A DNA stretch of 64,000 nucleotides from a virus. Taxonomy: Duplodnaviria; Heunggongvirae; Uroviricota; Caudoviricetes. How positions within the stretch are numbered: position 1 is the first letter of the stretch; each line of letters starts with the position of its first letter. A model generated the notes under the pieces. The model searched no databases. It was not told where the DNA came from and worked only from the letters and a program-made list of their open reading frames with translations. Shown here piece after piece: positions 6,671 through 54,485 of this stretch. Both the position numbers and the translations under genes were made by a program. Location of the stretch: positions 55,814 through 119,813 of the IMG/VR virus record IMGVR_UViG_3300042691_025398; one strand, written 5' to 3'.

Positions 6671-7018
6671 TTGGCCCTTTACCTTTATGCAAGTTTATGT
6701 TATAATCTTCCCATGGATACCAATGATCTAGTGGCATACGCCCGTGCTCGTTTTGATCACGAGGCAAACAAACGCCTACTTCAAGAAAAATATGAAGCCA
6801 AATTAACATTCGCATACAAAGGCGGCATGTTTCGAGCTGATCCTGCGATGATTGCTTTTTTAAGCTTGTATGGGGATGAACCAATTGTGATACAGGATCT
6901 CTATCACAATCCCGTACAAATTAATGCACAAGAGCTGCGCACTCTGATGATGCAACGGCATCAGGAACAGATGAATGCCTGGCTAAACGAACACAGCCAA
7001 TCCAGTAGAAATCGATGA
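6671..7018 (+). CDS. Hypothetical protein
   Basis: 115 aa ORF. Start of the co-directional biosynthetic block. Confidence 0.3.
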   Translation: MALYLYASLCYNLPMDTNDLVAYARARFDHEANKRLLQEKYEAKLTFAYKGGMFRADPAMIAFLSLYGDEPIVIQDLYHNPVQINAQELRTLMMQRHQEQMNAWLNEHSQSSRNR

Positions 7019-7812
7019 CAACCGGTGTGTTATTATTTGCATTCAATAATGATCATTTTGATTATTTGCGCATAGCTGCCTGGAACTGCAAACGCATTCA
7101 TGAGTTTTTGAATTTGCCAGTAGCAGTGGTCACCAACGTTCAGGATCATGATCAAATTCACTGCTTTGATCATGTGATTTATAAAGCCAAGCCTGAATCA
7201 GGCAAACGATACTTTGAAGACGTACAAAGCACTGTGTCATGGTACAATCTAGATAGAAGCTCCGCTTGGGAGATTTCTCCATTTGATCGTACCTTGGTGT
7301 TGGATGTTGACTATGTGGTCAATAGTCAACAGTTGCTTTGTCTACTGAACTTGAATCAAGATTTTGTTTGCCACAAGCACGCGATTGATGCCAAGACTGG
7401 AAAAGAATTCAACGCCACATTTGGTCGTTACAACATGCCCATGTATTGGGCCACGGTCATGTGCTATCAACGCAGCAAAAAGGCTGAAACTGTTTTTACC
7501 TTGATGCAAATGATACAAAAACATTGGCAGCACTATAGAGAACTATATCAAATAGACAGACCAACGTTTAGAAATGATCATGCTTTGAGTATTGCTCTGA
7601 ATATTGAATCAGGGCAATTTTTAAATACCACTAACATACCTTGGAGTTTGCTCAGCGTGATGCCTTCAGACAGGCTCAGCCTTATAGACTCGGAAGATTT
7701 TAGAGTTGATTACCAACAAAACAATCGTGATCATTATGTGTTGATCAAAAATCAAGATTTTCATGCCATGGGTAAAAGTTATCTGGAGAACATAATTGCC
7801 AATCATAGCTGA
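7015..7812 (+). CDS. Hypothetical protein (possible nucleotide-sugar transferase)
   Basis: 265 aa. Its start overlaps the upstream stop. Sits in the glycan-synthesis operon. Confidence 0.3.
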   Translation: MTTGVLLFAFNNDHFDYLRIAAWNCKRIHEFLNLPVAVVTNVQDHDQIHCFDHVIYKAKPESGKRYFEDVQSTVSWYNLDRSSAWEISPFDRTLVLDVDYVVNSQQLLCLLNLNQDFVCHKHAIDAKTGKEFNATFGRYNMPMYWATVMCYQRSKKAETVFTLMQMIQKHWQHYRELYQIDRPTFRNDHALSIALNIESGQFLNTTNIPWSLLSVMPSDRLSLIDSEDFRVDYQQNNRDHYVLIKNQDFHAMGKSYLENIIANHS

Positions 7813-8527
7813 ACAGGGCTTTGTTATTCCTGCTTTCAATACCCAGCATGTGGACTATGAATCATGCGCACAGCGATTGAAGAAGTCAATACTGGATTTT
7901 CACAGCACAGCCAACGTGACTATTTTAAGCAATGCTGACTTACCAGTGACCAATCTCACAGGACAGGCATTGGATTGGTTTGCCTACAAGTTAAGTCCCT
8001 ACAGACAAACTATCAAACTAGAAGCCGACATGCTCATGGCCGGGCCTTGTGCGCATTGGTTTGACCTATTACAACATCGTGACATTTGTATCTCAACCGG
8101 TTGCTTGGATTTTTATGGACAGCAGTCTACAAGTAGATTTTATAGAAAATTCATTGACCATAACAATCTACCAGACGTGTATAATGCCATCACTTATTGG
8201 AGAGTGAGTCATGCTGCACATGAGTTTTTTACTTGGTGTAAAAGAATTTTCATGGATTGGGATGAATACCGTAGATTGGTTAAATTTGCAGATGAGGAAC
8301 CCACTACAGATTTTGTTTATGCGATAGCAGCACAAATTCTAGGCCCAGAAACAGTGACCATGCCCTTTGCTAGCTATCCAAAAATCAGACACTTCAAACA
8401 GCATATTCTTAAAACCATGACCAATGATTGGACCAAAGAACTTGTATGGGAAGTTGACCCATTGCGTATTAACACTATGGCACAATGGGGTGCAGTACAT
8501 TATGTGAATAAAACATGGACACCGTAG
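7796..8527 (+). CDS. Hypothetical protein
   Basis: 243 aa, overlapping start/stop with its neighbours. Confidence 0.3.
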   Translation: MPIIAEQGFVIPAFNTQHVDYESCAQRLKKSILDFHSTANVTILSNADLPVTNLTGQALDWFAYKLSPYRQTIKLEADMLMAGPCAHWFDLLQHRDICISTGCLDFYGQQSTSRFYRKFIDHNNLPDVYNAITYWRVSHAAHEFFTWCKRIFMDWDEYRRLVKFADEEPTTDFVYAIAAQILGPETVTMPFASYPKIRHFKQHILKTMTNDWTKELVWEVDPLRINTMAQWGAVHYVNKTWTP

Positions 8528-8859
8528 ATTTTTGGCAACAGGTAGCAGAGTTATTAGAACCAGTTACAAATCATGAGACTCATTATAGAGTGTATTATGA
8601 CTCAACTGGACAAGTGTTATTTTATACCATGGAACACCTTCCAGGTAACTATCTAGACATTGATAGAGAAACCTACGCTCGCGCAGATTCCAAAGCGAGA
8701 GTTCAAAACGGAAAACTTGTAGCAGCAGCCACTCGAGTGAGTAGTAAACTCGTTCCAGACAATCAAGGACAGCCATGTCATCCACAGAATGTTGCTATTG
8801 TAAGTGATTCAGATCAAAACACAAAATGGAAGTTGAAACATTATGACCGAGCTAGTTGA
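8515..8859 (+). CDS. Hypothetical protein
   Basis: 114 aa ORF in the operon. Confidence 0.25.
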   Translation: MDTVDFWQQVAELLEPVTNHETHYRVYYDSTGQVLFYTMEHLPGNYLDIDRETYARADSKARVQNGKLVAAATRVSSKLVPDNQGQPCHPQNVAIVSDSDQNTKWKLKHYDRAS

Positions 8860-9769
8860 TATTGCTGATTTAGACTGTGTATTTTTAACCTATGATGAAC
8901 CTAATGCTGAGGAAAATTGGGTCCGTGTTCGGAACATGGTACCCTGGGCGCGACGAGTGGATGGTATTAAAGGGTCAGACGCCGCCCACAAAGCAGCAGC
9001 GATGGCGTCAACCACTGATCGCTTTGTGCTTATTGACGGGGACAATATCCCTGATGTTGCCTTTTTTGGGTGTACACTGGAGTTGGATGATACTAACCGG
9101 GACGTTGTATATCGCTGGAGGGCTAGGAATAACGTTAATGGATTGATGTATGGCAACGGTGGTATTAGTTGTTGGACACGAGACTTTGTGATGAACATGA
9201 AAACACACGAAGCAAGTGATGGCGCAGATGAAACCGCAGTTGAATTTTGTTTCCATCCAAAGTACTGGGCCATGCATGACTGTTACTCAACCACTTGTAT
9301 CAATACCACAGACTTTCAAGCCTGGCGTGCTGGATTTAGAGAAGGTGTCAAGATGTGCTTGGACCGTGGCCGCAGACCTTCTGTAAGCGAATTTCAAGAA
9401 CGTGTGTATCAACGTAATCTTGACAATCTAACCATATGGCACAACATTGGACGTGATGTTGAAAATGGTGATTGGGCAATCGCTGGTGCACGAATGGGCA
9501 CCTACATGACCATGTTGACCGAATGGAACTACCAATTGGTGCAAGACTTTGACGAACTAATAAAAATTTGGGATACAGTAAGAGATAATCATCCAGATGT
9601 GGTTGCAGGACGGCTTGCTGAAGATCTAAACACACAGCTTGGCCTACCCATGAACAGCACACAGGGCATGGAAAGTGAATTTTTTAAACATCACTATCGT
9701 GCTAACTTTCACAACCGGGGCATCATGACCAAAGAGATTGATGTGATTCAAGCACAGGAAGGCCGGTAA
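8843..9769 (+). CDS. Hypothetical protein, paralogous to the C-terminal domain of ORF 24471-26081
   Basis: Shared motifs GSDAAHKAAAMAST..F / GREAAYKVAAEQSET..F and NVNGLMYGNGGI / NPVNGLEYGAMNI. Confidence 0.35.
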   Translation: MTELVDIADLDCVFLTYDEPNAEENWVRVRNMVPWARRVDGIKGSDAAHKAAAMASTTDRFVLIDGDNIPDVAFFGCTLELDDTNRDVVYRWRARNNVNGLMYGNGGISCWTRDFVMNMKTHEASDGADETAVEFCFHPKYWAMHDCYSTTCINTTDFQAWRAGFREGVKMCLDRGRRPSVSEFQERVYQRNLDNLTIWHNIGRDVENGDWAIAGARMGTYMTMLTEWNYQLVQDFDELIKIWDTVRDNHPDVVAGRLAEDLNTQLGLPMNSTQGMESEFFKHHYRANFHNRGIMTKEIDVIQAQEGR

Positions 9770-10836
9770 TGTCTTATTTTACGCTACCCGCAGGTTACAA
9801 ACATCAATTAGTTTCTAAACCTAGGGGTAGATTACTGTCAACTCCAATACACAATAGTTGTAATGTGCCATATAAAACTGTGGTAGTGGATTACAATTCC
9901 AACTGTTTGATATGTGGTTGCGATGGTTGGCTACCAATTCCAGTAGGACAAGTGCAAGATTTTTTCAGTTTAGAAGATGTATGGAATAGTCCTACCGCAA
10001 AAATCCTGCAACAAGATATTGATGATAAAAAATTTACTTGGTGTGCAGTAGAACACTGTGGGATCAAACATCATAATATAAAACAATCTAGATATGAATT
10101 ATCAATAAACATTGATGAAAGTTGCAATTTACACTGTCCTAGTTGTCGCAGAGAACCAGTTATGCATTTACAAGGCACAGCTTTTGACAAGAAACTACAA
10201 GACATTGAACGCATACTTGGTTGGTTAGAATCCTTTCAACATCCTATACATATTGTGTTGTCGGGCAACGGTGATCCATTAGCCAGTGCAATCATTCGTC
10301 CTCTTATAAAAAAATACAAACCAAAAAGCAATCAGAGTTTTAAATTTTTTACCAATGGATTGTTGATCAAAAAACAACTAACAGACACAGCTATATTCAA
10401 CAATATAACAGAATTTTCAATAAGTGTTGATGCAGGTAGTCAACTAGTTTATGAAAATGTTCGTAGAGGCGGCAGTTGGCCAGTACTATTAGAAAATCTT
10501 GAATATTTAAAATCCATTGGCAAATCCGGATCAACCATCTTGAATTTTGCATTGCAAAAAAGCAATTTTGCTGACTTACAAAATTTTATTGATCTGTGTC
10601 ATTGGTACAATTTTAGCGCATTTGTGCATGGGCTTGACGATTGGGGGACCTGGAACACTAATGATGTGCAAGTACCTGATGCATGGACAATTAAAAACGG
10701 AACATTTAAACAGCACAATGTTTTAGACAGTGCTCATCCTCAATATCAAGAGTGCAAAAACATGATTCAAACAATTATGTCAGCTTCGCCACAGAATGTG
10801 TTCTTTTCTTTCGATTTACAGGCCAAACTTAGATGA
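9769..10836 (+). CDS. Radical SAM enzyme (divergent first member of the array)
   Basis: CX3CX2C motif (ESCNLHCPSC) followed by VLSGNGDPL. N-terminal Cys cluster (CNVPY..CLICGCDGW). Confidence 0.6.
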   Translation: MSYFTLPAGYKHQLVSKPRGRLLSTPIHNSCNVPYKTVVVDYNSNCLICGCDGWLPIPVGQVQDFFSLEDVWNSPTAKILQQDIDDKKFTWCAVEHCGIKHHNIKQSRYELSINIDESCNLHCPSCRREPVMHLQGTAFDKKLQDIERILGWLESFQHPIHIVLSGNGDPLASAIIRPLIKKYKPKSNQSFKFFTNGLLIKKQLTDTAIFNNITEFSISVDAGSQLVYENVRRGGSWPVLLENLEYLKSIGKSGSTILNFALQKSNFADLQNFIDLCHWYNFSAFVHGLDDWGTWNTNDVQVPDAWTIKNGTFKQHNVLDSAHPQYQECKNMIQTIMSASPQNVFFSFDLQAKLR

Positions 10837-12227
10837 CACAAAACAAAGGCGATCAATCAGTTGGAACCAAAAGCCAGTTCTTAAATTCCGCAGAGCAAAT
10901 GCGAGACACACTAGGACCTGCTCGCTGCTATGCTAAATGGAAACAAGTCAGCCTGCATCTCACCACTGGTATGACCAACAGTTGCTATCATCCACCGCTG
11001 CATGAAATAGATACTACACTGCTGGCTGACAACCCCGGTGCATTACACAACACACCTTATAAAAAAGCTCAGCGCAAGATAATGTTGCGCAATGAACGTC
11101 CCACGGAATGTCAGTATTGTTGGAACATGGAAGACCTTGGTGAACTAAGTGATCGTCATTATCGTTCCGGCGAGCCATGGGCAAACATTGATCTTGATGG
11201 ATTAACTGGTGATGAGGATGTGATACCCAGCTACGTGGAAGTGAACTTTAGTAATGTTTGTAATCTCTCTTGCAGTTATTGCAGCCCTCAGTTTAGCAGC
11301 ACCTGGATGGACGAGGCCACTAGGCATGGAGCATATCCCACTAGCAATAAACATAATGATCCTGCACACTTTACCAATCGTAGGCGCCCCATACCAAACC
11401 GTGAACACAACCCTTACCTAGATGCATTTTGGCAGTGGTGGCCTTCTCTTTATCCAAAACTACGACATTTCCGTATGACCGGTGGAGAACCTCTTCTTGA
11501 CAAAAATACCTATAGAGTTTTTGATTATGTTTTGGCTTCCCCTCACCCTGAGTTGCATTTAAATGTCACAAGTAACTTTAGTGTGTCCAATGAAATATTC
11601 GTACGCTACTTGGATTATGTTAGAAAATTATGCGACACTAGGATCGAACACTTTATGCAGTACGTAAGCATTGATACTGGAGACTGGGATCAAGCAGCTT
11701 ATATTCGACGTGGGTTGATGCCAAGTCAATTCATGGTAAATGTAAATCAATATTTAGAAAAAGTTCCAAACCGCAATAGTTTGACATTCATTGTTACTTT
11801 GAATAATCTAAGTGTGTCAGGTCTAGACCAATTGTTCGATTATATCTTAGAATTGCGTTCAAGACACAGTCGTACCTATCAGCGTGTATGGTTTGATACT
11901 CCGGTGTTACGCAACCCTCGTTGGCAAAGTTTACAAATATTACCGGAATCATATCAACGTCGGATGGAGCAACACATTGACTTTATGCGACAGAATCTAA
12001 TGCCCGAAGGCAGTTTTGTCGGATTCAAGGACTACGAGATACAGAGAATGGAACGTGCATTAGCTTGGATGCGTGAACCACAAGATGCTGACATTGTAAA
12101 ACAAGATCGTGCAGACTTCTATCGTTTTTTTAACGAATATGATCAACGTAGTTACCAAAAGTTTTCAAAAGTGTTTCCAGAAATGAACAAGTTTTGGCTA
12201 GAGTGCGAATCTCATGCCAATGCCTAA
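10833..12227 (+). CDS. Radical SAM enzyme, subtype A
   Basis: NVCNLSCSYCSP (CX3CX2C) and GGEPLL. N-terminal motif AKW..GMTNSCYHPP and a CQYCW Cys pair. Start overlaps the upstream stop. Confidence 0.65.
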   Translation: MTQNKGDQSVGTKSQFLNSAEQMRDTLGPARCYAKWKQVSLHLTTGMTNSCYHPPLHEIDTTLLADNPGALHNTPYKKAQRKIMLRNERPTECQYCWNMEDLGELSDRHYRSGEPWANIDLDGLTGDEDVIPSYVEVNFSNVCNLSCSYCSPQFSSTWMDEATRHGAYPTSNKHNDPAHFTNRRRPIPNREHNPYLDAFWQWWPSLYPKLRHFRMTGGEPLLDKNTYRVFDYVLASPHPELHLNVTSNFSVSNEIFVRYLDYVRKLCDTRIEHFMQYVSIDTGDWDQAAYIRRGLMPSQFMVNVNQYLEKVPNRNSLTFIVTLNNLSVSGLDQLFDYILELRSRHSRTYQRVWFDTPVLRNPRWQSLQILPESYQRRMEQHIDFMRQNLMPEGSFVGFKDYEIQRMERALAWMREPQDADIVKQDRADFYRFFNEYDQRSYQKFSKVFPEMNKFWLECESHANA

Positions 12228-13332
12228 CCTTGTGCTCGACGAGTCTTGCGAAGTCACGGCATTGCTTAAACCCTATGCAACCGACACATTTTGGACTTTC
12301 AAGCATCTGAGTTTCGCATCCGACCGCATTTACGTGGTGGGAAGGAAACAGTTCATTGCCAATCTTGATCTTATATCTAAACTGCTAGACAGAGGGATAA
12401 AAATAGTGTATTCTAATCCATTTGAAGGCAGCGAAACTGTGGTCAGCATTTTGACCAAATTAAACTGCCAGCAGTGGTTCTTCGATCGCAAGGTACTGTT
12501 GATAAGTGGAGGAGATATTGGCCTAGAATGGTATAATTTGAGTTATGATCTTTTTCTTACCAAGGTGCACAACTATACCGAAAATCTAGATGTGATTGCA
12601 AAGTGCGATGAGATTTTTACCAAACAACATAAGCCTTACAAATTTCTTTTCTTGAATGGTCGTGGACGAGCGCATAGAAAATACATGATAGAAAAACTAC
12701 ACGCTCTTGGACTTTTAGATCAAAGTTTGTACACTTGGTTGGATCCCATGGCTCCCGAATCTTCATGGATAAATCAAGATATCATGATCACGCCAAGACC
12801 TATTCACATGTTACCAGTACAGTATGAAGTGCAAAGATATCAAGAGCGTGTGAACCTTGAATACAACACCACTGACTATGCCATGATGAAACTGTTTAAC
12901 AACGAGTGGGGAGCCATTTATCTCAATCTGCCCACTTATACAGACACCTACTTTAGCCTAGTAACTGAAACAGTGGCTGATTACCCGTTTAGTTTTCGCA
13001 CAGAAAAAATCTGGAAGCCCGTGGCCATTGGGCACCCTTGGGTATGTGTGGCCAATTCAGGTTTTTACAGAGACATGAGAAATTTAGGATTCCGTACCTT
13101 TAACGGAATCATTGACGAAGCATTTGATGCCATAGAAAACACACAACAACGATTAGATGCTGTGCTAGGTGTGGTTCAAGAAATCTGTGCCAATCCTATT
13201 GAATTCCTTGATGCCAGTAGAGATATCTGTAAATATAACCAAGCTCACATGTGTGCACTTAGAGAAAAAGTCAGTGCAGATTTTCCAAACAGATTTTTCA
13301 AATTTTTAAGAGACTATCAATGGACGACCTAG
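12214..13332 (+). CDS. GT10-like glycosyltransferase (fucosyltransferase-type C-terminal motif), paralog 1
   Basis: C-terminal YFSLVTETVADYPFSFRTEKIWKPVAIGHPWV resembles the GT10 FucT signature (FENS...YxTEKxW). Confidence 0.5.
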   Translation: MPMPNLVLDESCEVTALLKPYATDTFWTFKHLSFASDRIYVVGRKQFIANLDLISKLLDRGIKIVYSNPFEGSETVVSILTKLNCQQWFFDRKVLLISGGDIGLEWYNLSYDLFLTKVHNYTENLDVIAKCDEIFTKQHKPYKFLFLNGRGRAHRKYMIEKLHALGLLDQSLYTWLDPMAPESSWINQDIMITPRPIHMLPVQYEVQRYQERVNLEYNTTDYAMMKLFNNEWGAIYLNLPTYTDTYFSLVTETVADYPFSFRTEKIWKPVAIGHPWVCVANSGFYRDMRNLGFRTFNGIIDEAFDAIENTQQRLDAVLGVVQEICANPIEFLDASRDICKYNQAHMCALREKVSADFPNRFFKFLRDYQWTT

Positions 13333-14654
13333 AATTCAAACACACTGTCCTTGACCAGTTATCGCCAAGCTTTTGTGCAGCAAAGTGGTATAATGCAACC
13401 ATTTGGCTGGGTTCAGGCATGACCACATCCTGCCACCACCCACCGGCTCATTTAGTGGACATTGATAAAGTCCGTGCTAACCCTAGGTTACTGCACAACA
13501 CAGACCAAAAGAAACAAGACCGTGAGATGATGCAACGCGGCGAACGCCCGGCAGGTTGTGAATACTGTTGGAAAATTGAGGACATGAACCGCGACGCTAT
13601 AAGTGATCGTGTGTACAAGTCTAAGATTTACAAAATAGAGGACATAAACTATGCAAGACACACTCCCGCTTCAGGAGACATCAATCTTAAAACTTTGGAG
13701 ATCAGTTTTGATCGGACTTGTCAATTTGCTTGTAGTTATTGCAATCCCGCCTTTAGTAGCACATGGGTACGCGACATATCTAAAAATGGGCCATATGTGG
13801 GATTGGCAAGTGACGGTCGCAATCATTTCACTCATGCTCACAATAGTGCTCAACTTTATAATTTCGGTGAACAAAATCCTTACGTAGATGCTTTTTTTGC
13901 ATGGTGGGAATCAGACCTCCACAGAACTTTAGACGAACTGCGTATCACAGGAGGCGAGCCCTTGATGTCTGGGTATACATGGCAATTGATTGATTGGTTT
14001 AAAAACAATCCTGGCCGCAGTCAAACTCGTCTGGCAATAAATTCAAATCTTGGCATGGACACTGCCAAGATACAAAGACTGCTTGATGCTTGTGAAGGCA
14101 TTGAATTGGATTTGTACACCAGTAATGAAAGCATGGACATTCAGGCAGAGTATATTCGCGATGGCCTGACATGGAAACAATGGGAAGAAAATCTTTCTCT
14201 GTTGATTCGTAGTGGCAGCATAAGAGGACTGCATGTGATGAACACTGTGAATGCACTGTGTTTAGAAAGCCTGCCAGAATTTTTAACTTATCTTCTCACG
14301 TGGAAATCTCAGTATGGCGCTGACTTTCCAAACTTTACCTTGAACATTTTAAGATTCCCCAGTTTCCAGTCTCCCTTGGTACTACCTGAACACATAAGAA
14401 CTCTGCACCGTGATAGACTACAACGTTGGCTTGACACCTGGCATCATCATGTGATGCTGCAAGAACACGAGCGTAATCATATAAAACGCTTGATTGATTA
14501 TCTTGATGTGGTAAAAACTCCGCATTCTGAATCTTTTGATTTGCCTGTTTTACAAAAAGATTTCAAACAGTTTTATCAACAATATGATTTGCGTCGAGGC
14601 AAAAATTTTCAAGATACATTCCCTACATTGAAAGAGTGGTATGCGCAAATCTGA
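13320..14654 (+). CDS. Radical SAM enzyme, subtype A
   Basis: CQFACSYCNP (CX3CX2C) and ITGGEPLM. N-terminal AKWYN..GMTTSCHHPP and CEYCW, paralogous to 10833-12227. Confidence 0.65.
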   Translation: MDDLEFKHTVLDQLSPSFCAAKWYNATIWLGSGMTTSCHHPPAHLVDIDKVRANPRLLHNTDQKKQDREMMQRGERPAGCEYCWKIEDMNRDAISDRVYKSKIYKIEDINYARHTPASGDINLKTLEISFDRTCQFACSYCNPAFSSTWVRDISKNGPYVGLASDGRNHFTHAHNSAQLYNFGEQNPYVDAFFAWWESDLHRTLDELRITGGEPLMSGYTWQLIDWFKNNPGRSQTRLAINSNLGMDTAKIQRLLDACEGIELDLYTSNESMDIQAEYIRDGLTWKQWEENLSLLIRSGSIRGLHVMNTVNALCLESLPEFLTYLLTWKSQYGADFPNFTLNILRFPSFQSPLVLPEHIRTLHRDRLQRWLDTWHHHVMLQEHERNHIKRLIDYLDVVKTPHSESFDLPVLQKDFKQFYQQYDLRRGKNFQDTFPTLKEWYAQI

Positions 14655-15924
14655 GTACAACGATCCCAAGCCAGTAAAAATAGAATTTGATAGCCTAACT
14701 GATAGGCAGAAGTTTCTCTTAACTGAAAGCAAAACCTTTTGCATCTATCCATGGATACACTTGCATGCATATCCCACCGGAGAAGCACATCCCTGTTGCC
14801 ATAGCACCATGTGGCAATCAGTGGGACACTGTAAAAAGAACACTCTAGAAGAAATCTGGAATCAAGCACCCATGCGAGCATTACGCAAAAACATGCTGGA
14901 AGAAAAGCCCAGTGCAGGTTGTGTACGTTGTTATGAACAGGAAAAATCAGGTTTCATGAGTGGTCGTCAAGGTGCTAACAAACATCACGGACATCATATC
15001 AATCGTGTGGATGAAACTGATCATACCGGACATCTCAACAGATTTGAAATGACCTATTGGGATATTAGATTCAGTAATCTGTGCAATCTAAAATGTCGCA
15101 GTTGCGGATTTATTTTTTCTAGTTCTTGGTATGCAGATCAAGTGAAACTCACTGGCCCAGAGTGGCGTGATAAATTCACTGCATTAAACTATGCTGGCCG
15201 TACTGAAATTGACATGTGGGAACAGCTGATGCCTCATCTTGATTATGTTGAACAAATCTACTTTGCTGGCGGCGAACCTTTAATGATGGAAGAGCATTAC
15301 AACATTCTTGAAGAACTAGAACGTCGTGGTAGATTTGATGTTAGACTGATCTATAACACAAACTTTACACAGACCAAATTAAAGAATCGTTCGGTGTTTG
15401 ACTACTGGCGCAAGTTTGACAGTGTGAGCATTGGTGCTAGCCTAGATGCCATGGGTCCAAGAGCTGAATACATTCGCAAAGGCACTGACTGGGACACAGT
15501 TGAAAGAAATCGCAGCATGATGCTTGAAATGTGTCCTAATGTGGACTTTTATATCAGTCCCACACTCAGCTTGATGAATGCCTGGCATCTAACAGATTTT
15601 CACCGTGACTGGGTTGAACGTGGATTCATACGTGCACAAGATCTAAATGTGAACATACTTCAAGATCCTCCACATTTTAGAATTGACGTGGCTTCAGCAC
15701 ACTACAAAGACATGCTAAGACAGAGATTTACAGAACACATTGAGTGGTTAAGACCATTGGATCCTTTAAAACGTGCTAGTCAAGGATTTGAAAGTGCAAT
15801 CACATTCATGGACAGTAACGACAACAGTAACAAGCTAGATGAATTCTGGGCAAAAACACATCAGCTTGATGTGATCCGTGGAGAGAACATTTTTGACGTG
15901 TTACCTGAGTTAAATCAACTATGA
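14641..15924 (+). CDS. Radical SAM enzyme, subtype B
   Basis: NLCNLKCRSCG (CX3CX2C) and FAGGEPLM. N-terminal FCIYPW...G..HPCCHS and CVRCY. Confidence 0.65.
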   Translation: MRKSEYNDPKPVKIEFDSLTDRQKFLLTESKTFCIYPWIHLHAYPTGEAHPCCHSTMWQSVGHCKKNTLEEIWNQAPMRALRKNMLEEKPSAGCVRCYEQEKSGFMSGRQGANKHHGHHINRVDETDHTGHLNRFEMTYWDIRFSNLCNLKCRSCGFIFSSSWYADQVKLTGPEWRDKFTALNYAGRTEIDMWEQLMPHLDYVEQIYFAGGEPLMMEEHYNILEELERRGRFDVRLIYNTNFTQTKLKNRSVFDYWRKFDSVSIGASLDAMGPRAEYIRKGTDWDTVERNRSMMLEMCPNVDFYISPTLSLMNAWHLTDFHRDWVERGFIRAQDLNVNILQDPPHFRIDVASAHYKDMLRQRFTEHIEWLRPLDPLKRASQGFESAITFMDSNDNSNKLDEFWAKTHQLDVIRGENIFDVLPELNQL

Positions 15925-17156
15925 AAGTACCACATGACAAATTTTGTGTGCTGCCCTGGGTAAGTCTAGAAACATCGCCGATTGGCACAGTGCGTCCATG
16001 TTGTTTGGCCAAAGATGAAATCACAGATGACAACGGAAAAAAATTCCAACTTAAAACCTCGAGCTTCGATCAAATACGAAATAGCAGTCACATGCGAGAC
16101 CTCAGGAATCAGTTCTTGGCCCAAGATAAACTTCCGTCCACATGTGAGCGTTGTTGGGCAGTTGAAGACAGCGGAGGCACTAGTAAACGACAGCACAGTC
16201 TTGACAGACTCAAACATGTTATCCAAGAGCAAACCTGGACAGAAGAAGCAAAAGACCTAGTGTTCTTGGATCTAAAGCTGGGCAACATTTGCAACCTAAA
16301 ATGTCGTATATGTGGCCCATGGAGTTCCAGTACCTACGCCAGTGAAGAAGTTGGTCAGATAATGACTCTAGATCGTAAACAGACCTATGCATATCAAATG
16401 TTGCGTGAAGGAAGATGGCCAAGAGAGAGTCCAGACTTCTGGCAAGAACTTGATGCCATTGCAGATCAGCTGCGTTATCTTGAATTCACAGGTGGTGAAC
16501 CATTTATGATCGCAGAGCACTTTGATTTTTTACAAACACTTGTGGATCGTGGCCTTGCTCCCAACATTGAAATTCATTATAATACCAATGGTACACACTA
16601 TCCTGAACGTGGAGTAGAACTATGGCCTCACTTTAAGCTGGTAGAAGTTGCTTTCAGTATTGATGATCTTGAAGATAGATTTGAGTATCAAAGAACTGGT
16701 GCAAAGTGGTCAGAAGTTATGTCTAATCTTGAACTGTTTAGACAACTGCGAGAACAATCTAATAACATTCAATTGCAATTGTGTTGTACCATTAGCATTT
16801 GGAACGTTGTATACTTCAACGAAATTGCTGCCTGGGCTACTGGTTTCCCCTGGGACTTTGTTTATTGGAATTATCTACATGATTCACCGGTGTGGTGTAT
16901 TGCAAACGTTGTTGAACCAGTCAAAAACAACATAGCAAGGTATCTACGCGGTCAACCAATTGTGGATCAACACGCTGATGCTAGGAATCAAATAATTGAT
17001 TTTATGTATTCAAGAGAGGGATGGATGGGTTGTGGACGTGGCGGTACACTGACCTATGAAATTGAACGCTTTGATAGACTGCGCAATCAACGTTTAGGTG
17101 ATGTAGCTCCACTGTTGGCAACCATGATCTACTACAGCGGACCTTATGATGATTAG
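15921..17156 (+). CDS. Radical SAM enzyme, subtype B
   Basis: NICNLKCRICGP and FTGGEPFM. N-terminal FCVLPW...G..RPCCLA and CERCW. Confidence 0.65.
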   Translation: MKVPHDKFCVLPWVSLETSPIGTVRPCCLAKDEITDDNGKKFQLKTSSFDQIRNSSHMRDLRNQFLAQDKLPSTCERCWAVEDSGGTSKRQHSLDRLKHVIQEQTWTEEAKDLVFLDLKLGNICNLKCRICGPWSSSTYASEEVGQIMTLDRKQTYAYQMLREGRWPRESPDFWQELDAIADQLRYLEFTGGEPFMIAEHFDFLQTLVDRGLAPNIEIHYNTNGTHYPERGVELWPHFKLVEVAFSIDDLEDRFEYQRTGAKWSEVMSNLELFRQLREQSNNIQLQLCCTISIWNVVYFNEIAAWATGFPWDFVYWNYLHDSPVWCIANVVEPVKNNIARYLRGQPIVDQHADARNQIIDFMYSREGWMGCGRGGTLTYEIERFDRLRNQRLGDVAPLLATMIYYSGPYDD

Positions 17157-18438
17157 GCCAGAAACACTGTGCATGGCGCCTTGGGTGCATACCTATCTGT
17201 CCCCACAAACTGAACGTCGTATGTGCTGTGCCAGTCGTGAACCTGCGCAGAATTTTCGTCAATACATTGATACCAAAGCAGGCACAGGCAAGTACATACC
17301 CATTACATTGGAAGAACACTGGAACAGTGATCACATGCGCAGTGTGCGGCGTAGGATGCTTGCAGGTGAAACCTTGCCTGAATGTGAAGTGTGCAACGAT
17401 AAACTGCTTAACACTGACGTATATCGTGATTACTTTAATAATCTTTTTGCGCACAAATGGACTGAAGTGTTGGCCACTACAGGACCTAGCGGAGCTACCA
17501 GCATGCAGCCCGTGAGTTGGGACTATAGATTCAGTAATCTTTGCAACTTCAAATGTCGCATGTGTGGTGACATGCTGAGTTCAGCATGGGAAAGCGAACG
17601 CAGACAACATGACCTCATTGACTGGACTGATGCTAGAAACAATTGGATGCAGCCAGAAGTCAAACAAAAAATCACACAGTTTCAAGATTCAGTTATAGAA
17701 CAAGAATTCGCACAGGCAGTTGAACAACATCGTGTGGAAGAAGTATATTGGGTGGGCGGTGAACCTCTCATGTATGAACAACACTGGCGATACATGCGCA
17801 GGATTGTTGAGCTTGGTGATGGTGCAAAAATTTATGCAAGATACAATACCAATCTTTCAAGAATCAACTATCAAGGTATAAATCTTTACAACGACATACT
17901 AGCACATGTTAGAGATTGGCAAATTTGTGCAAGTCTTGACGGCACTGGTACTGTAGGAGAATACATTCGCACAGGGTTGAATTATGATCAGTGGTTAGAT
18001 AACTTTAGGCAAGGACTAGAGCATCAAAAACACCCACGACAGATGCGCATTGACTTTACACTAACACTACCAGGTTTGCTAGAAGTAGTAAACATTGAAC
18101 GATTAAGTCAAGAGCTTGGCTGCGGACTATTGTGCAAAACAGTGTTTGCTTTCAGCCCAGACAACATGTGGAGTCCACTGATACTACCAAGGCCAATTCT
18201 CAATCAAGTGGTTGACTCTCTATTGGCCAAGGTGAGTACATCGGTGGTAAAGGACATGCTCGAACAACTGAAAACTAGATCCACTTTTGAAGAAACATGG
18301 CCGGATCTTTATCCAGACGCTGTGTTAAAAGGTAAACAAACTGTGCTACAATTAGAAAACATCCGCAAGCACTCAACAACCATGTCAGACATACTGGATA
18401 AGGATGTGATACTAGGAAAGTGGTGGAATGACATCTAA
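17146..18438 (+). CDS. Radical SAM enzyme, subtype B
   Basis: NLCNFKCRMCGD and VGGEPLM. N-terminal LCMAPW....RMCCAS and CEVCN. Confidence 0.65.
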   Translation: MMIRPETLCMAPWVHTYLSPQTERRMCCASREPAQNFRQYIDTKAGTGKYIPITLEEHWNSDHMRSVRRRMLAGETLPECEVCNDKLLNTDVYRDYFNNLFAHKWTEVLATTGPSGATSMQPVSWDYRFSNLCNFKCRMCGDMLSSAWESERRQHDLIDWTDARNNWMQPEVKQKITQFQDSVIEQEFAQAVEQHRVEEVYWVGGEPLMYEQHWRYMRRIVELGDGAKIYARYNTNLSRINYQGINLYNDILAHVRDWQICASLDGTGTVGEYIRTGLNYDQWLDNFRQGLEHQKHPRQMRIDFTLTLPGLLEVVNIERLSQELGCGLLCKTVFAFSPDNMWSPLILPRPILNQVVDSLLAKVSTSVVKDMLEQLKTRSTFEETWPDLYPDAVLKGKQTVLQLENIRKHSTTMSDILDKDVILGKWWNDI

Positions 18439-19489
18439 GATTAAAATGATTTTAAGAAATCCAGTACAAAAAAACAGTACCGTGGAAGTGATCATTGACG
18501 TGCATGACACAGTGCTGTCGCAGGATTGGATCACAGCTTTGACACACTTGATACAAAAGCAATACAAAATTGAAAAGAACTTCTGTTTCATGGGATTTCC
18601 TGATGGCGCACGTGACCTTGATTTTTTATGCGCAGAACTCAATCAAGCCGTGGACACAATCAATCAAAGCGATCTAGACTACATCATACATGATCAAGTA
18701 ACACCAGAACAGTTGTTAGAAGACAAGACCATTCTAAATCATGTGCACAATCATTTTGAAATCTTGCAAGGTACTGTAAATCATCTAAGTGATTTTTACA
18801 AACAAGCTGACTATCGCACCAAATATGCCATAAGAGAATTGAACACTGTGTGTCATGAACTGGAAAGTTTGGTGTTGAGTAAACTGCGTCAACGCACTGC
18901 TCCAGAATGGGTAAGGCTCAGTCAAATCAACACCTGGCTGAATGCACCAAGACACAGTCTACTAGATCAACATCGCAGACCCTGGAGCATGGATTGTTAT
19001 GATCGCCATCTAGGCGAAGTGTACATGCATTGGGCACAGATTGGCAAAACTCTGTTTGAAGTATACAGAGATGAAGGTGCTCCAGAACTCACTGAAGCAG
19101 TGTGTGAAGCCATTACTCATCTAGAGTATTACAGTGGTGAATTTGATATTGAATGGGGCAACAATATCAAATACGCAGACCATGAATGGTGGAGATTTGA
19201 AATTGATGGATTTTATGACTGGTTGAATGCCAATGGCCTTGATCATACAGATCCTAAATTGAGTTTGGGATATTTGCCTATTGCTCAAGTTGATCTACGT
19301 GCATCTTTTGGTAGTGAAGATTATCTCCAGATATGGCCCGTGCTCAGTGATCATCTTGATGTATACAAAATTGAAGTTAACGGGCACACAGCTACATACG
19401 ACTACTGTTGGACTGATTCAGATTACAAACAGCAGCAGATTGCACAGTTGCGACCCGGATACGATCACAGCTCTAAGGACCGTGTATGA
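18428..19489 (+). CDS. Hypothetical protein
   Basis: 353 aa ORF overlapping the last radical-SAM stop. No motif recognised. Confidence 0.3.
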   Translation: MTSKIKMILRNPVQKNSTVEVIIDVHDTVLSQDWITALTHLIQKQYKIEKNFCFMGFPDGARDLDFLCAELNQAVDTINQSDLDYIIHDQVTPEQLLEDKTILNHVHNHFEILQGTVNHLSDFYKQADYRTKYAIRELNTVCHELESLVLSKLRQRTAPEWVRLSQINTWLNAPRHSLLDQHRRPWSMDCYDRHLGEVYMHWAQIGKTLFEVYRDEGAPELTEAVCEAITHLEYYSGEFDIEWGNNIKYADHEWWRFEIDGFYDWLNANGLDHTDPKLSLGYLPIAQVDLRASFGSEDYLQIWPVLSDHLDVYKIEVNGHTATYDYCWTDSDYKQQQIAQLRPGYDHSSKDRV

Positions 19490-19660
19490 ATTGGATAACA
19501 AACATTTGGAAAAGAATTGTTTTGGAAATACGATATCGTAGGAAACTGCGCGAACTGAGAAAACGAGATCCATTCATATACAAATGAACTTTTTTATTTT
19601 GAATCTTTATTTCTACTTTGCTATCCTAGCAGCAATCAGGCTAGGTGACTGGCTAGGCAT

Positions 19661-21202
19661 GTGCATTGTGGTAATTGCATACTGGGGTATGCTATCTTGG
19701 TTGGATCTAGAATGACACACATTCTTGGAGTCAGCGGTGGATTTCACGATGGAGCAGTTGCTCTGATCAACACCAATGGTGATATCTTGTATGCAGCGCA
19801 CAGTGAGAGATATAGCAAGTTAAAAAATGATCCAGGCATCAGTCCAGATCTATTACAGTATATAAAAGATTATGACATCCACACCGTGGCCTTTTATGAA
19901 AGACCCTGGTTGCACAATGTTCAACAGTTTGTAAGCGGACAAAAATCATATACACCTTGGACCACCAAGGGAAGGATTAAGGATCTAATACCAAAGATGC
20001 CTTGGACTCCAAGCACAGTAGAGAGTCATCCACATCATTTAAGTCATGCTGCCGCTGCCTTTCAAACTTCTACATTTGACACTGCTGCTGTAGTGGTAAT
20101 TGATGCCATCGGCGAGTTGGACACTATCAGTATCTATAAAGCCAGTTATAACGATCATGGCCAGGCAGTGTATAAACGAGTGTGGCGACATTTGTACCCA
20201 CACAGTATTGGTTTGTTTTACTCTGCTATGACAAAATACGTAGGCCTAAAGCCCATGGAAGATGAATATATCTTGATGGGCATGAGTGCGTATGCAAATA
20301 TAAACAGTCGTTTGGCAAAAACGCATATAAAACAAAATCTAATTGACGACATACACACAGCAACCTTCCTACGCAATCTACACATTGGCATAGAAGAAAA
20401 CGAATTTGCATTATATGAACCAGAAGACCTTGCAGGAGCAGCTCAACGAATCACCGAAGAAATGATATCTTCGATCATGCGCCTGGCACGTACTCTCACA
20501 GGCGAATCCAATCTATGTTATGGTGGAGGAGTGGCATTAAACTGTGTGGCCAACAGCCGACTGGGGGGATATTTTGATAAGATATGGATTATGCCTAATC
20601 CTGGTGATGCTGGAGCCAGTCTTGGCGCAGCCGCATTGAGTTATGGGCGTAAACTCAACTGGAAAAATGCTTATCTTGGTCATTTTATCAATGGCGACTA
20701 TCCTGTAAAATTTTTACTTGATGAACTAATCAAAAATCAAATAGTTGGTGTGGCAAGTGGCCGCGCTGAGTTTGGTCCACGTGCGCTTGGCAATAGAAGT
20801 TTATTGGCTGATCCACGTGGACATGATATAAAGGATCGTGTAAATGAAATCAAACGCAGACAAAAGTTTCGACCATTCGCACCTGTCGTACTGGAAGAAA
20901 TGGCTGATCAGTACTTTGATTTCAGCCCTGGGTGGAGTGATAGCCGTTATATGCAGTCAGTCGCTCGTTGTAGGAATCCTGACTTGTTTCCTGCTATCTG
21001 CCATGTTGATGGGACCAGTAGAGTACAAACGGTACCAAAAGACAGTTCAGGAATTAGAGAACTCCTAGAAAAATGGTTTGTAATGACTGGATGTCCAATG
21101 TTGTTGAATACTTCTTTAAACATTCGTGGTGAGCCAATGGTTAATGATCGTTATGATGCTCGGCGATTCTCCGAGCTGTATGGCATTAAAGTTTTCACTT
21201 AA
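19661..21202 (+). CDS. Carbamoyltransferase (NodU/CmcH/TobZ family)
   Basis: N-terminal HILGVSGGFHDGAVALINTNGDILYAAHSERYSKLKND is the Kae1/YgjD-like ASKHA start of O-carbamoyltransferases. Length 513 aa. Confidence 0.75.
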   Translation: MHCGNCILGYAILVGSRMTHILGVSGGFHDGAVALINTNGDILYAAHSERYSKLKNDPGISPDLLQYIKDYDIHTVAFYERPWLHNVQQFVSGQKSYTPWTTKGRIKDLIPKMPWTPSTVESHPHHLSHAAAAFQTSTFDTAAVVVIDAIGELDTISIYKASYNDHGQAVYKRVWRHLYPHSIGLFYSAMTKYVGLKPMEDEYILMGMSAYANINSRLAKTHIKQNLIDDIHTATFLRNLHIGIEENEFALYEPEDLAGAAQRITEEMISSIMRLARTLTGESNLCYGGGVALNCVANSRLGGYFDKIWIMPNPGDAGASLGAAALSYGRKLNWKNAYLGHFINGDYPVKFLLDELIKNQIVGVASGRAEFGPRALGNRSLLADPRGHDIKDRVNEIKRRQKFRPFAPVVLEEMADQYFDFSPGWSDSRYMQSVARCRNPDLFPAICHVDGTSRVQTVPKDSSGIRELLEKWFVMTGCPMLLNTSLNIRGEPMVNDRYDARRFSELYGIKVFT

Positions 21203-40394: not shown

Positions 40395-42313
<1,919 letters not shown>

Positions 42314-53652: not shown

Positions 53653-53654
53653 AT

Positions 53655-53733: not shown

Positions 53734-53734
53734 A

Positions 53735-54480: not shown

Positions 54481-54485
54481 ATGTT

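Follow-up and report, generated by a model that had tools for sequence, protein, structure and literature searches.

A conserved array of N-terminal-twitch radical-SAM paralogues in a jumbo-phage operon rich in predicted glycosyltransferases

What would a phage make with six radical-SAM genes placed in a row? This question is raised by a 64,000-nucleotide stretch of viral DNA, referred to here as the window. The source genome, with 28 tRNAs, a tmRNA and GroEL, is that of an uncultivated jumbo myophage, and related contigs carrying the same module reach 345 kb. Ralstonia phage RsoM2USA and phages of the PA5oct type are distant relatives, and no cultured relative close to the source phage was found. 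The cyanophage context assumed in a preliminary description of this DNA gives way to this assignment.

The six ORFs with a CX3CX2C motif lie at 9769-18438, all on the + strand, in agreement with the coordinates and strand reported before. RS0, previously set apart as a further divergent member, is one of the six.

RS0, 9769..10836, + strand: 355 aa; CNLHCPSC, GNGDPL; short, divergent, accessory; N-terminal SPASM-like Cys domain
RSA1, 10833..12227, + strand: 464 aa; CNLSCSYC, GGEPL; N-terminal-twitch radical-SAM enzyme, subtype A; NF033640 303 bits
RSA2, 13320..14654, + strand: 444 aa; CQFACSYC, GGEPL; same type, subtype A; 288 bits
RSB1, 14641..15924, + strand: 427 aa; CNLKCRSC, GGEPL; same type, subtype B; 406 bits
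RSB2, 15921..17156, + strand: 411 aa; CNLKCRIC, GGEPF; same type, subtype B; 324 bits
RSB3, 17146..18438, + strand: 430 aa; CNFKCRMC, GGEPL; same type, subtype B; 291 bits

The GGEPL motif, said to follow CX3CX2C in every member, is present in RSA1, RSA2, RSB1 and RSB3 and replaced in RS0 and RSB2. All six ORFs matched Pfam Radical_SAM (E 1.4e-12 to 1.6e-5), and five, RS0 excepted, matched the NCBIfam model NF033640 at 288-406 bits (E 1e-86 to 1e-121), which is far above chance and well over the model's cutoff of 170 bits. The motifs thus align with radical-SAM cores, and all six are genuine radical-SAM enzymes. RS0 reached only 34 bits with NF033640, under the cutoff, while scoring 48.5 bits with Radical_SAM and 21.4 bits with SPASM (residues 31-97). 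SPASM also matched RSB1 (38 bits, residues 34-97) and RSB2 (30 bits, residues 9-79), supporting the auxiliary-cluster Cys domain that had been proposed. NF033640 itself combines an N-terminal twitch/SPASM-like four-Cys domain, the CX3CX2C core and a C-terminal helical domain. The novelty claimed for the array depended on its members not forming one common annotated family; five of the six do share a family, which counts in part against that claim, but NF033640 is a bare named model, for which no function was found in the published literature searched, and the family is named yet uncharacterised.

The division into two subfamilies by Cys-rich N-termini held, with the motifs AKW..GMTxSC(Y/H)HPP and C(Q/E)YCW in subtype A, and (F/L)C..PW...P....CC and CxxC(Y/W/N) in subtype B. 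Members of A share 34% identity and those of B 28-33%, against 21-27% across the two subtypes. In each paralogue, seven cluster Cys and at least one orthogroup-specific Cys were invariant (62-70 orthologues each); in RSA1, for example, all seven together with C267 and C458 were invariant in 65 orthologues, and the invariance of the cluster Cys also held for RSA2.

The array forms the core of an operon of 16 ORFs (6671-21202), which carries on from tail-fibre-like genes of the same orientation. All 15 junctions overlap, by 1-17 nt, as judged from first-start ORF calls, the radical-SAM N-termini being spanned by orthologue alignments; six of them have the form ATGA. This packing bears out the overlapping start and stop codons described earlier and fits translational coupling. 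The upstream genes, the single gene interrupting the array and the glycosyltransferases of a divergent arm are as follows.

c115, 6671..7018, + strand: opens the overlapping chain, with an ATGA overlap with d265; orthologue in 55 loci
d265, 7015..7812, + strand: predicted GT-A-like glycosyltransferase, e243 paralogue
e243, 7796..8527, + strand: predicted GT8/glycogenin-like GT-A glycosyltransferase, weak
f114, 8515..8859, + strand: small conserved protein; orthologue in 73 loci
g308, 8843..9769, + strand: GT2-like (GT-A), highly conserved, with an invariant IDGDN motif
h372, 12214..13332, + strand: 372-aa glycosyltransferase of GT-B fold, between RSA1 and RSA2
k396, 22213..23403, - strand: predicted GT-B; matches the h372 profile (E 4e-28)
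l365, 23375..24472, - strand: predicted GT-B, h372 paralogue (hhalign probability 99.5%, E 1.7e-22)
m536, 24471..26081, + strand: g308-like (GT-A-like) domain at residues 307-460

The array is interrupted only once, as described before, and the interrupting h372 is indeed a glycosyltransferase, of GT-B fold; its membership in GT10 was not borne out. Support for the GT-A assignments is weak (E 0.005-0.15): the e243 profile retrieved only glycogenin entries from the PDB (E 0.15-1.5), and Glyco_tranf_2_3 was weakly matched by 7 of 25 g308 orthologues (best E 0.005). g308 has a median identity of 66% over 82 loci, and m536, found in 35 loci, matches its profile (E 6e-21). d265 matches the e243 profile (E 1.6e-12), and its D97 and D99 (DxD) are invariant in 25 orthologues. 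Extra copies of l365 sit among radical-SAM genes in other loci, and neither c115 nor f114 has a Pfam match.

Downstream of the array lie further conserved genes and tailoring enzymes.

i353, 18428..19489, + strand: conserved protein, orthologue in 78 loci, no Pfam or PDB match
pep33, 19486..19587, + strand: 33-aa micro-ORF, MNWITNIWKRIVLEIRYRRKLRELRKRDPFIYK
orf43, 19584..19715, + strand: 43-aa hydrophobic ORF with two hydrophobic segments, in closest relatives only
CarbT, 19712..21202, + strand: NodU/CmcH-type O-carbamoyltransferase (Pfam Carbam_trans_N E 1e-37, Carbam_trans_C E 6e-49; PHROG 1601)
j344, 21195..22229, - strand: amidinotransferase of the AGAT/StrB1/SxtG family
Accessory sugar-nucleotide genes, 26067..28697, - strand: NAD epimerase/dehydratase (E 1e-41), DegT aminotransferase (E 2.8e-54) and PIG-L deacetylase (E 4.2e-11), all by Pfam

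CarbT probably starts at ATG 19712 rather than at GTG 19661, giving the N-terminus MTHILGVSGG. Among the module's enzymes, j344 is the best conserved (median identity 78%); it matched 2jdx (E 5.8e-27) and StrB1 (1bwd, E 2.8e-18) with the active-site Cys region aligned. On these profile matches, the module comprises the overlapping operon and a divergent arm, with seven predicted glycosyltransferases, all soluble (three of GT-B and four of GT-A-like type), together with an O-carbamoyltransferase and an amidinotransferase. Membrane segments were predicted in none of the cassette enzymes from c115 to m536, and one marginal segment was predicted in the accessory DegT aminotransferase.

Each of the five core paralogues had an orthologue in 83-90 of 90 related loci, with a median identity of 54-68% (RSA1, RSA2, RSB2 and RSB3 in 86, 88, 89 and 83 loci at 64%, 68%, 54% and 68%, respectively). 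At 21-34% identity to one another, they are ancient paralogues, each retained as a separate orthologue across a large clade of uncultivated jumbo myophages. The preliminary description inferred six sequential radical steps from the array, but only five paralogues are core, RS0 being found in 8 of the 90 loci; complete loci hold five radical-SAM genes in 48 of 67 cases and six to eight in the remainder. The array was also called very unusual, which holds against characterised systems, but the module is common and conserved in metagenomes, where RSB1 has more than 7,600 homologues. The gene order RSA1-h372-RSA2-RSB1-RSB2-RSB3-i353-CarbT is retained in essentially all related loci, and adjacent paralogues are fused in operon order (RSA1-RSA2, RSB1-RSB2 and RSB2-RSB3), although some double-domain fusions may reflect a frameshift or a miscalled gene at a 4-nt overlap. 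The retained order and the ordered fusions point to a core, constrained function.

Outside this clade, too, the family has a glycan context. Both bacterial NF033640 loci examined (plasmid records, one from a MAG) adjoin GT4 and ABC-transporter genes, and one family protein carries a fused GT2 domain. By profile, the nearest PDB sequences were viperin (E 7.5e-9), BlsE and MoaA, enzymes of nucleotides or nucleotide-linked sugars. Together with the glycosyltransferases, carbamoyltransferase and amidinotransferase in the window and the nearby epimerase/dehydratase, DegT and PIG-L genes, these relatives argue for a glycan product. RsoM2USA has a distant mini-version of the module, with homologues of d265 and g308 and an RSA1 orthologue, beside its tail sheath and baseplate genes; this location, the soluble enzymes and the tail-fibre-like genes upstream suggest a cytoplasmic, phage-directed target. 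Several observations count against a glycan. Several NF033640 proteins carry fused TPR or Sel1 repeats, and such repeats bind proteins or peptides; AGAT/StrB1-type amidinotransferases usually act in small-molecule pathways, not on glycans; the weak GT-A calls weigh on the same side. The RSB1 model (AF2, pLDDT 86) had only generic radical-SAM neighbours in the PDB by Foldseek (TM 0.3-0.4), among which the peptide-modifying anSME, SkfB, SuiB and CteB ranked level with nucleotide-acting enzymes, all weakly.

The last neighbours and the repeat fusions would suit a peptide-based product, in which pep33 could be the true substrate in place of a sugar. Like PqqA with PqqE, or MftA with MftC and the glycosyltransferase MftF, pep33 would be a substrate or scaffold cross-linked or modified by the radical-SAM enzymes and decorated by the transferases, yielding a glycosylated RiPP-like molecule or peptide-derived cofactor. 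Peptides are common substrates of SPASM/twitch enzymes, and glycosylation is known for mycofactocin. Further, no element of the module is better conserved than pep33: across 49 distinct DNA versions, its 20 C-terminal residues show no change beyond conservative I/Y and K/R replacements, with synonymous codons free to vary, which is a protein-level constraint far tighter than that of any enzyme. The peptide occurs in every clade locus that spans this site and in at least 120 contigs of IMG/VR. Its fixed context, however, is i353-pep33-CarbT (i353 lies directly upstream in 98 of 101 further loci) rather than the radical-SAM genes, and same-family arrays in Vibrio phage K566 and RsoM2USA, as well as bacterial members, do without it. 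No paralogue matched a RiPP-recognition (PqqD-like) domain in Pfam or NCBIfam, seven glycosyltransferases are many for a peptide product, and pep33 ends exactly at the ATGA overlap with the next start, so that a regulatory leader peptide would suit equally. We consider a peptide product unlikely.

Slightly more doubtful is a small carbamoylated, guanidinylated pseudo-oligosaccharide, aminoglycoside- or aminocyclitol-like, directed against the host or competitors. The enzyme families recall those of aminoglycoside pathways. Besides the twitch radical-SAM enzymes of the array (compare BtrN), the window contains another radical-SAM gene, the seventh, at 48978-50525, which matches AprD4 weakly (E 1.4e-3), as well as DegT and PIG-L (compare BtrS and BtrD), a carbamoyltransferase (compare TobZ), the StrB1-type j344 and GT-B transferases, all enzymes being soluble; in cyanophage S-SCSM2R, similar genes were termed 'antibiotic synthesis genes' (PMC12801897). 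Yet neither a 2-deoxy-scyllo-inosose synthase nor an inositol-phosphate synthase was found, relatives do not keep DegT, PIG-L and the epimerase alongside the module at this position, seven transferases imply a glycan longer than known aminoglycosides, and the module adjoins the tail gene block. Nor is it obvious why a clade of lytic jumbo phages would conserve an antibiotic pathway so strictly.

Decoration of hydroxymethyl-pyrimidines or other phage DNA bases, for evasion of host nucleases, would be served by soluble enzymes and fits the presence of the module throughout the clade, as expected of an anti-restriction trait; known thymidine hypermodification involves radical-SAM and PLP enzymes. 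T4 DNA glucosyltransferases matched h372, which also counts against a glycan, but they did so equally with other GT-B enzymes and at 7-8% identity, a generic GT-B likeness. Among those window ORFs covered by profile scans, no hydroxymethylase, base kinase or DNA-binding domain was found, the genome encodes a ThyX of normal type, and co-direction with tail-fibre genes suggests late expression, whereas DNA-modifying enzymes act early. We judge DNA modification improbable. Remodelling of host LPS or capsule during infection, through host lipid-carrier and export machinery, seems more improbable still. Bacterial family members do lie in exported-polysaccharide loci, and PstS and a phosphate porin are other host-facing auxiliary genes in the window; but no initiating phosphoglycosyltransferase, flippase, polymerase, ligase or membrane protein was detected in the module, the genome bears no sign of lysogeny, and strict conservation with tail-gene linkage is unexpected for a host-surface trait.

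We therefore favour, with middling confidence, a cytoplasmic line whose product would be a glycoconjugate tailored by radical chemistry and bearing carbamoyl and amidino groups, probably attached to a virion component. Each radical-SAM enzyme would cleave SAM reductively at its CX3CX2C cluster, and the resulting 5'-deoxyadenosyl radical would take a hydrogen from a sugar carbon of a nucleotide-sugar or growing glycan, the fully Cys-ligated N-terminal cluster carrying an electron. We know of no NF033640 member with a known substrate, and the outcome is thus a guess: oxidation, epimerisation, dehydration, or C-C or C-methyl chemistry. The five paralogues would each serve a different sugar or position, carbamoyl and amidino groups would be added afterwards, and the acceptor would most likely be a phage component, a tail fibre or other virion protein. 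In this clade of jumbo phages, the probable product of the module is a heavily decorated sugar chain, made by uncharacterised chemistry.

Six open reading frames (ORFs) in a row carry a CX3CX2C motif, as follows.

RS0, 9769-10836, + strand, 355 aa, radical-SAM ORF with CX3CX2C
RSA1, 10833-12227, + strand, 464 aa, radical-SAM ORF of subtype A with CX3CX2C
RSA2, 13320-14654, + strand, 444 aa, radical-SAM ORF of subtype A with CX3CX2C
RSB1, 14641-15924, + strand, 427 aa, radical-SAM ORF of subtype B with CX3CX2C
RSB2, 15921-17156, + strand, 411 aa, radical-SAM ORF of subtype B with CX3CX2C
RSB3, 17146-18438, + strand, 430 aa, radical-SAM ORF of subtype B with CX3CX2C

The preliminary description had read these ORFs as radical-SAM proteins, and all six indeed matched Pfam Radical_SAM (PF04055) with E values from 1.4e-12 to 1.6e-5. 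Four exceeded the Pfam gathering score of 29.5 bits, and the two just under it, RSA2 (25.6) and RSB1 (28.5), were both covered by the NCBIfam model NF033640, ‘twitch domain-containing radical SAM protein’ (N_Twi_rSAM). Over the full model length, RSA1, RSA2, RSB1, RSB2, and RSB3 scored 303, 288, 406, 324, and 291 bits against NF033640, respectively, where the curated whole-protein cutoff is 170 bits. RS0 reached 34 bits and was not placed in this family. The SAM-binding GGE motif reads GGEP(L/F) in five ORFs and GNGDPL in RS0. The five core paralogues share with NF033640 an N-terminal Cys-rich twitch domain followed by a radical-SAM core (N-twitch architecture); whereas that family at large is known only as a named model, five deeply diverged members stand here in one operon.

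The SPASM iron-sulfur domain of Pfam was matched by four of the six ORFs, unusually at the N-terminus, and lay above threshold in RSB1 (residues 34-97) and RSB2 (residues 9-79). In all six the auxiliary Cys domain precedes the radical-SAM core, and no Cys cluster motif was found in the C-terminal part, which is helical in the RSB1 model. The canonical SPASM/twitch subfamily (anSME, BtrN type) requires a C-terminal auxiliary cluster domain and was therefore rejected as a home for these proteins. The N-terminal motifs described earlier were present, and they divide five of the ORFs into subtype A (RSA1 and RSA2) and subtype B (RSB1-3). RSA1 and RSA2 are 34% identical, the three subtype-B proteins 28-33% among themselves, and proteins of different subtypes 21-27%. 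Because the paralogues are only 21-34% identical, a recent tandem duplication was ruled out as the origin of the array, whose members are old. Duplicated QueE (7-carboxy-7-deazaguanine synthase), the case that would have made the array commonplace, was likewise set aside, since QueE models were matched only in fragments and far under cutoff (RSA1 22 bits against a cutoff of 260; RSB2 against PHROG 2076, E 1.4e-5). For every core paralogue, 62-70 orthologues were compared, and in all of them the three Cys of CX3CX2C, the N-terminal Cys (four in subtype A and five in subtype B), and one or more additional Cys specific to the orthogroup (two in RSA1) are invariant. Each core protein is expected to bind two [4Fe-4S] clusters.

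An N-terminal extension of 140 aa is present in about half of the RSB1 orthologues, and one of 180 aa (MIIAFYPGAGGNRY...) in some RSA1 orthologues; examples are P0004, P0026, and P0048, and loci L007, L009, L016, L068, L069, and L083. No Pfam family was matched by these extensions in a Pfam scan. A seventh radical-SAM gene lies outside the array (48978-50525, - strand, 515 aa, motif CVRRCTFC, core at residues 232-395); it has an extra N-terminal domain, its top PDB match was 9ccb (E 7.8e-8), and the aminoglycoside enzyme AprD4 was matched weakly (E 1.4e-3).

The RSB1 model (pLDDT 86), compared with the PDB by Foldseek, found generic radical-SAM neighbours only, including anSME, SkfB, SuiB, CteB, GDGT-MAS, viperin, MoaA, NifB, and QueE; SPASM/twitch enzymes were the best of these neighbours, although BtrN was absent among the structural neighbours listed. 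Array enzymes and SPASM/twitch enzymes (anSME, BtrN, SkfB, SuiB, CteB, and MoaA) both combine a radical-SAM core with an auxiliary Cys-ligated cluster domain, but this domain is N-terminal in the array and C-terminal in the others, and the structural likeness is low (TM 0.3-0.4). No solved structure represents the N-twitch architecture. A search of the PDB with the single RSB1 sequence gave nothing at E <= 1, and a subtype-B profile matched viperin (E 7.5e-9), 8vpo (E 3.8e-8), BlsE (3.4e-4), and MoaA (2.3e-3); the viperin model also appeared as a weak secondary match in the NCBIfam scan. Viperin, BlsE, and MoaA, the best named matches of this profile in the PDB, act on nucleotides or nucleosides. 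The array scores far under the cutoffs of those families, which have neither an N-terminal twitch domain nor paralogue arrays, while the array enzymes have both.

The array belongs to a tightly packed module. All 15 successive stop/start junctions from 6671 to 21202 overlap by 1-17 nt, six of them as ATGA, and h372, a predicted GT-B transferase (12214-13332, 372 aa), sits between RSA1 and RSA2. The most likely start of the carbamoyltransferase gene CarbT is ATG at 19712 (MTHILGVSGG) rather than the GTG listed at 19661. A sigma-70 promoter scan stayed at chance level (46 sites found, 46.2 expected), terminator-like sites were hardly above chance, and the T4 late-promoter motif TATAAATA had three matches, again at chance level and none within the module.

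At E < 1e-5, RSB1 had more than 7,600 homologues, and the best 120 were 68-85% identical to it on contigs of up to 235 kb. We gathered 80 IMG/VR loci (contigs up to 345 kb) together with metagenome and MAG loci, and compared 90 related loci; IMG/VR holds clade contigs of 170-345 kb. Orthologues of RSB1 were found at all 90 (median identity 68%), of RSB2 at 89 (54%), of RSA2 at 88 (68%), of RSA1 at 86 (64%), and of RSB3 at 83 (68%); RS0 had orthologues at only eight of the 90. Among 67 loci spanning the whole module, 48 had five radical-SAM genes, 10 had six, eight had seven, and one had eight. Gene order was nearly fixed across the 90 loci: tail fibre, b321, c115, d265, e243, f114, g308, a variable stretch, RSA1, h372, RSA2, RSB1, RSB2, RSB3, i353, CarbT, and a second variable stretch, after which j344, k396, and l365 follow on the opposite strand and m536 forward. 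Additional radical-SAM genes, and additional genes resembling h372 or l365, have entered at the variable hot spots.

Seven of the partner genes are predicted glycosyltransferases. The preliminary description had labelled h372 as GT10-like; no Pfam GT10 match appeared in 25 orthologues, even with E up to 5, PDB sequences gave no match, and the Pfam scan of the same orthologues gave no consistent family. When h372 was compared with a viral structure library, transferases of giant viruses were among its fold relatives (Mimivirus LCMiAC02, Indivirus, and mimivirus L138, which is unnamed in UniProt), and the predicted GT-B transferases k396 and l365 are its paralogues. Among the GT-A-like genes, g308 is the best-conserved transferase-like gene (median identity 66%), with an invariant IDGDN and weak GT2 matches in 7 of 25 orthologues, and a g308-like domain is contained in m536; e243 had glycogenin as its sole, weak match, and its paralogue d265 has an invariant DxD. 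Profiles of g308, h372, l365, d265, and the unassigned ORF i353 gave no meaningful match to PDB sequences, and Pfam scans of i353, m536, k396, l365, and the unassigned ORFs c115 and f114 gave nothing.

The ORF at 19712-21202 (CarbT) is a NodU/CmcH-type carbamoyltransferase. The most conserved enzyme of the module is j344 (21195-22229, - strand; median identity 78%), which as a single sequence had no Pfam match at E <= 0.001 and was detected only when a profile of its orthologues was run against PDB sequences. This profile matched arginine:glycine amidinotransferase (2jdx, E 5.8e-27) as well as SxtG, HsvA, and StrB1; the alignment to 2jdx reaches the C-terminus and sets GGISC opposite GGFHC, the catalytic Cys region. 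On this full-length profile match, j344 is a predicted amidinotransferase of the AGAT/StrB1 kind. The pairing of an amidinotransferase with an N-twitch radical-SAM gene recurs beyond the clade: MH319727.1 (Marine virus AG-345-D19, 7,955 bp, single-cell-derived) has an amidinotransferase homologue at 2615-3907 and an N-twitch radical-SAM fragment at 7267-7953. Just past the module lie genes for an epimerase/dehydratase, a DegT aminotransferase, and a PIG-L deacetylase, which are not kept there in relatives.

The set of enzyme families seen here is also found in aminoglycoside clusters (butirosin, tobramycin, streptomycin, and apramycin), which share with the module twitch radical-SAM enzymes, DegT aminotransferase, PIG-L deacetylase, NodU-type carbamoyltransferase, StrB1-type amidinotransferase, and GT-B transferases. 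In contrast to those clusters, the module has no cyclitol synthase and many more transferases and radical-SAM genes, it is phage-encoded beside tail genes, and several of the shared families are only accessory in relatives. That the product is an aminoglycoside-like metabolite is in our view quite unlikely.

Two small ORFs lie between i353 and CarbT.

pep33, 19486-19587, + strand, 33-aa micro-ORF between i353 and CarbT
orf43, 19584-19715, + strand, 43-aa ORF between pep33 and CarbT, with two hydrophobic segments

orf43 is limited to the window and its closest relatives. The reading frame of pep33 has an ATGA overlap at each end. Using a degenerate DNA pattern covering 18 of its C-terminal 20 residues, we found pep33 in at least 120 IMG/VR contigs, in single copy in each, with i353 upstream in 98 of 101 cases and CarbT downstream in 94 of 102; no locus of the clade that spans both i353 and CarbT lacks the peptide. 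Among 49 different DNA versions the C-terminal 20 residues, E(I/Y)RYRKKLKELRKRDPFIYK, were invariant or changed only conservatively (I/Y, K/R), and synonymous codons varied freely: one Leu and one Arg each use six codons, and the Pro uses four. Purifying selection acts on the peptide itself, is extreme, and is tighter than on any enzyme of the module. pep33 was not found in the Vibrio phage K566, the Ralstonia phage RsoM2USA, or the bacterial loci.

pep33 may act as substrate or scaffold, arrest ribosomes as a leader peptide, or be a small basic protein. PqqA/PqqE and MftA/MftC/MftF likewise pair a very short peptide under strong conservation with auxiliary-cluster radical-SAM enzymes, and mycofactocin, made by the latter, involves a glycosyltransferase as well. 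The sequences are unrelated, however, and pep33 is tied to i353 and CarbT, not to a radical-SAM gene. Unlike those systems, the module has no detected RiPP-recognition (PqqD-like) domain in its cassette proteins at the Pfam and NCBIfam thresholds used, and its matches to RiPP maturase models were far beneath the cutoffs. We consider a peptide-based product unlikely. Its boldest form, in which pep33 would be the primer or substrate of the whole module and five radical-SAM enzymes and seven transferases would build on it a glycosylated, carbamoylated, and amidinated molecule, is rather unlikely; the phage would thereby make a cofactor, a toxin, or a signal, or else an adduct attached to its virion. 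If this were true, both the class of natural product and the role of NF033640 would be new. A less radical alternative is that pep33 could be a metabolite-sensing ribosome-arrest leader controlling CarbT, which would be unprecedented in a phage. As substrate or as translational regulator, pep33 is a separate lead.

Beyond the clade, a profile of the six window paralogues matched 5,706 of 1.84 billion cluster representatives at E <= 1e-30, a number that rises to 14,916 at E <= 1e-10. In many top matches a single chain combines two or three N-twitch radical-SAM domains, and in some of these the fused domains follow the operon order (RSA1-RSA2, RSB1-RSB2, and RSB2-RSB3). A few fused paralogue chains may have arisen from errors of assembly or gene calling where genes overlap by 4 nt; the more distant double-domain proteins argue that the paralogues work together. 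The fused forms also suggest that adjacent paralogues may form hetero-oligomers. Other fusion partners were TPR repeats (four cases), Sel1 repeats, a GT2 domain, and part of a subtilase. The Vibrio phages K566 and K567 have four N-twitch radical-SAM genes in a row and RsoM2USA has one. In K566 (L001, 255 kb), the array at 161.5-168.3 kb is clustered with unannotated genes and lacks pep33; it is of the same family and independent. In RsoM2USA, a mini-module of the order d265, e243, x, g308, RSA1, g308-like lies directly downstream of genes for the tail sheath, a confirmed structural protein, and the baseplate.

The genome carrying the module is that of an uncultivated jumbo myophage. The window has 28 tRNA genes (array at 53575-59968, - strand) and a tmRNA (46966-47338, - strand; tag ANAANDEVFALAA), besides ThyX and tail-fibre/baseplate-like proteins; tail-fibre-like proteins are encoded at 47-3442 and 4281-5663. 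Genes for GroEL chaperonin (40395-42017), a phosphate-selective porin of the OprO/P family (42488-43897), and the phosphate-binding protein PstS (43907-44932) stand in a row on the - strand, auxiliary genes that serve the folding of proteins and the uptake of phosphate. The AAA ATPase of the window is 49% identical to its counterpart in PA5oct-type jumbo phages. In view of these features, a cyanophage origin was rejected. No nucleotide-level relative was found when the array was compared by megablast with 50,697 phage records, and tblastn gave remote relatives only. A betaproteobacterial host can reasonably be guessed, since the tmRNA agrees best with the betaproteobacterial model (163 bits) and Ralstonia is the host of the closest relative in culture. 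Two near-identical complete modules on ‘Haliscomenobacter sp.’ MAG contigs of 183 and 148 kb (L010, NZ_JBBAKG010000001.1; L011, NZ_JBBAKG010000003.1) are probably on mis-binned phage contigs, or else hint at a host. Jumbo phages carrying the module are abundant and uncultivated and, by some sample origins, apparently from freshwater. The phage also encodes an S-adenosylhomocysteine hydrolase (38592-39881, - strand; Pfam E 7e-132), which hints at heavy SAM-dependent methylation in infection and may be tied to the radical-SAM load.

The best-supported reading, to which we give about an even chance, is a cytoplasmic pathway for a multi-sugar glycoconjugate, whose substrate, reaction types, and acceptor are all inferred. 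Five different N-twitch radical-SAM enzymes would tailor the sugars, carbamoyl and amidino groups would be added, and the acceptor would be a virion component. We propose the virion because of the link to tail genes, kept even in RsoM2USA, and the absence of export machinery: no membrane segments were predicted in the cassette enzymes from c115 to m536, and among the accessory enzymes the DegT aminotransferase shows a single, marginal hydrophobic stretch. As rival readings, we regard DNA hypermodification as improbable and remodelling of the host envelope as less probable still. Both bacterial family loci that we inspected, each a plasmid record and one of them MAG-derived, lie among GT4 and ABC-transporter genes; for the phage module we hold envelope remodelling to be very improbable.

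The glycoconjugate pathway has parallels in the glycans of chloroviruses and mimiviruses and in mycobacteriophage virion glycosylation, which use their own soluble transferases and sugar-tailoring enzymes, as here; for the present phage, a virion glycan is a prediction. To our knowledge, none of these virus-encoded systems has a radical-SAM array. NF033640 as a curated model and phage sugar clusters are already known. Freshwater jumbo phages (‘moraphage’) have been described with four core glycosyltransferase groups and no mention of radical SAM (PMC12619734). The closest published remark concerns the T4-like cyanophage S-SCSM2R, whose ‘antibiotic synthesis genes’, in its authors' term, comprise an amidinotransferase, a DegT-family enzyme, and a radical-SAM maturase, and which had one of its amidinotransferases detected in the virion proteome (PMC12801897). 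An amidinotransferase of this phage is 28% identical to j344. Its genes are scattered among other auxiliary genes, in contrast to the packed module here; no N-twitch array was found in it, and tblastn with the window radical-SAM genes did not match it. In the literature searched, we found neither jumbo phages described with radical-SAM arrays, nor a jumbo-phage module built around a conserved N-twitch array of five to eight members, nor the invariant micro-ORF, and searches by family name and accession returned no substrate or function for NF033640.

NF033640 is a large family, and the phage clade, with five diverged members, a fixed context, and defined partners, offers a compact test bed for its chemistry. 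RsoM2USA, which is cultured, provides an experimental entry: its minimal version of the module (ORF348-353) has a single N-twitch radical-SAM gene together with g308 and two GT-A-like genes. Should the product decorate the virion, the module would be, as far as we know, the most elaborate phage-encoded glycan pathway and the first to use radical chemistry, and it would bear on host recognition and the evasion of host defences in jumbo phages.
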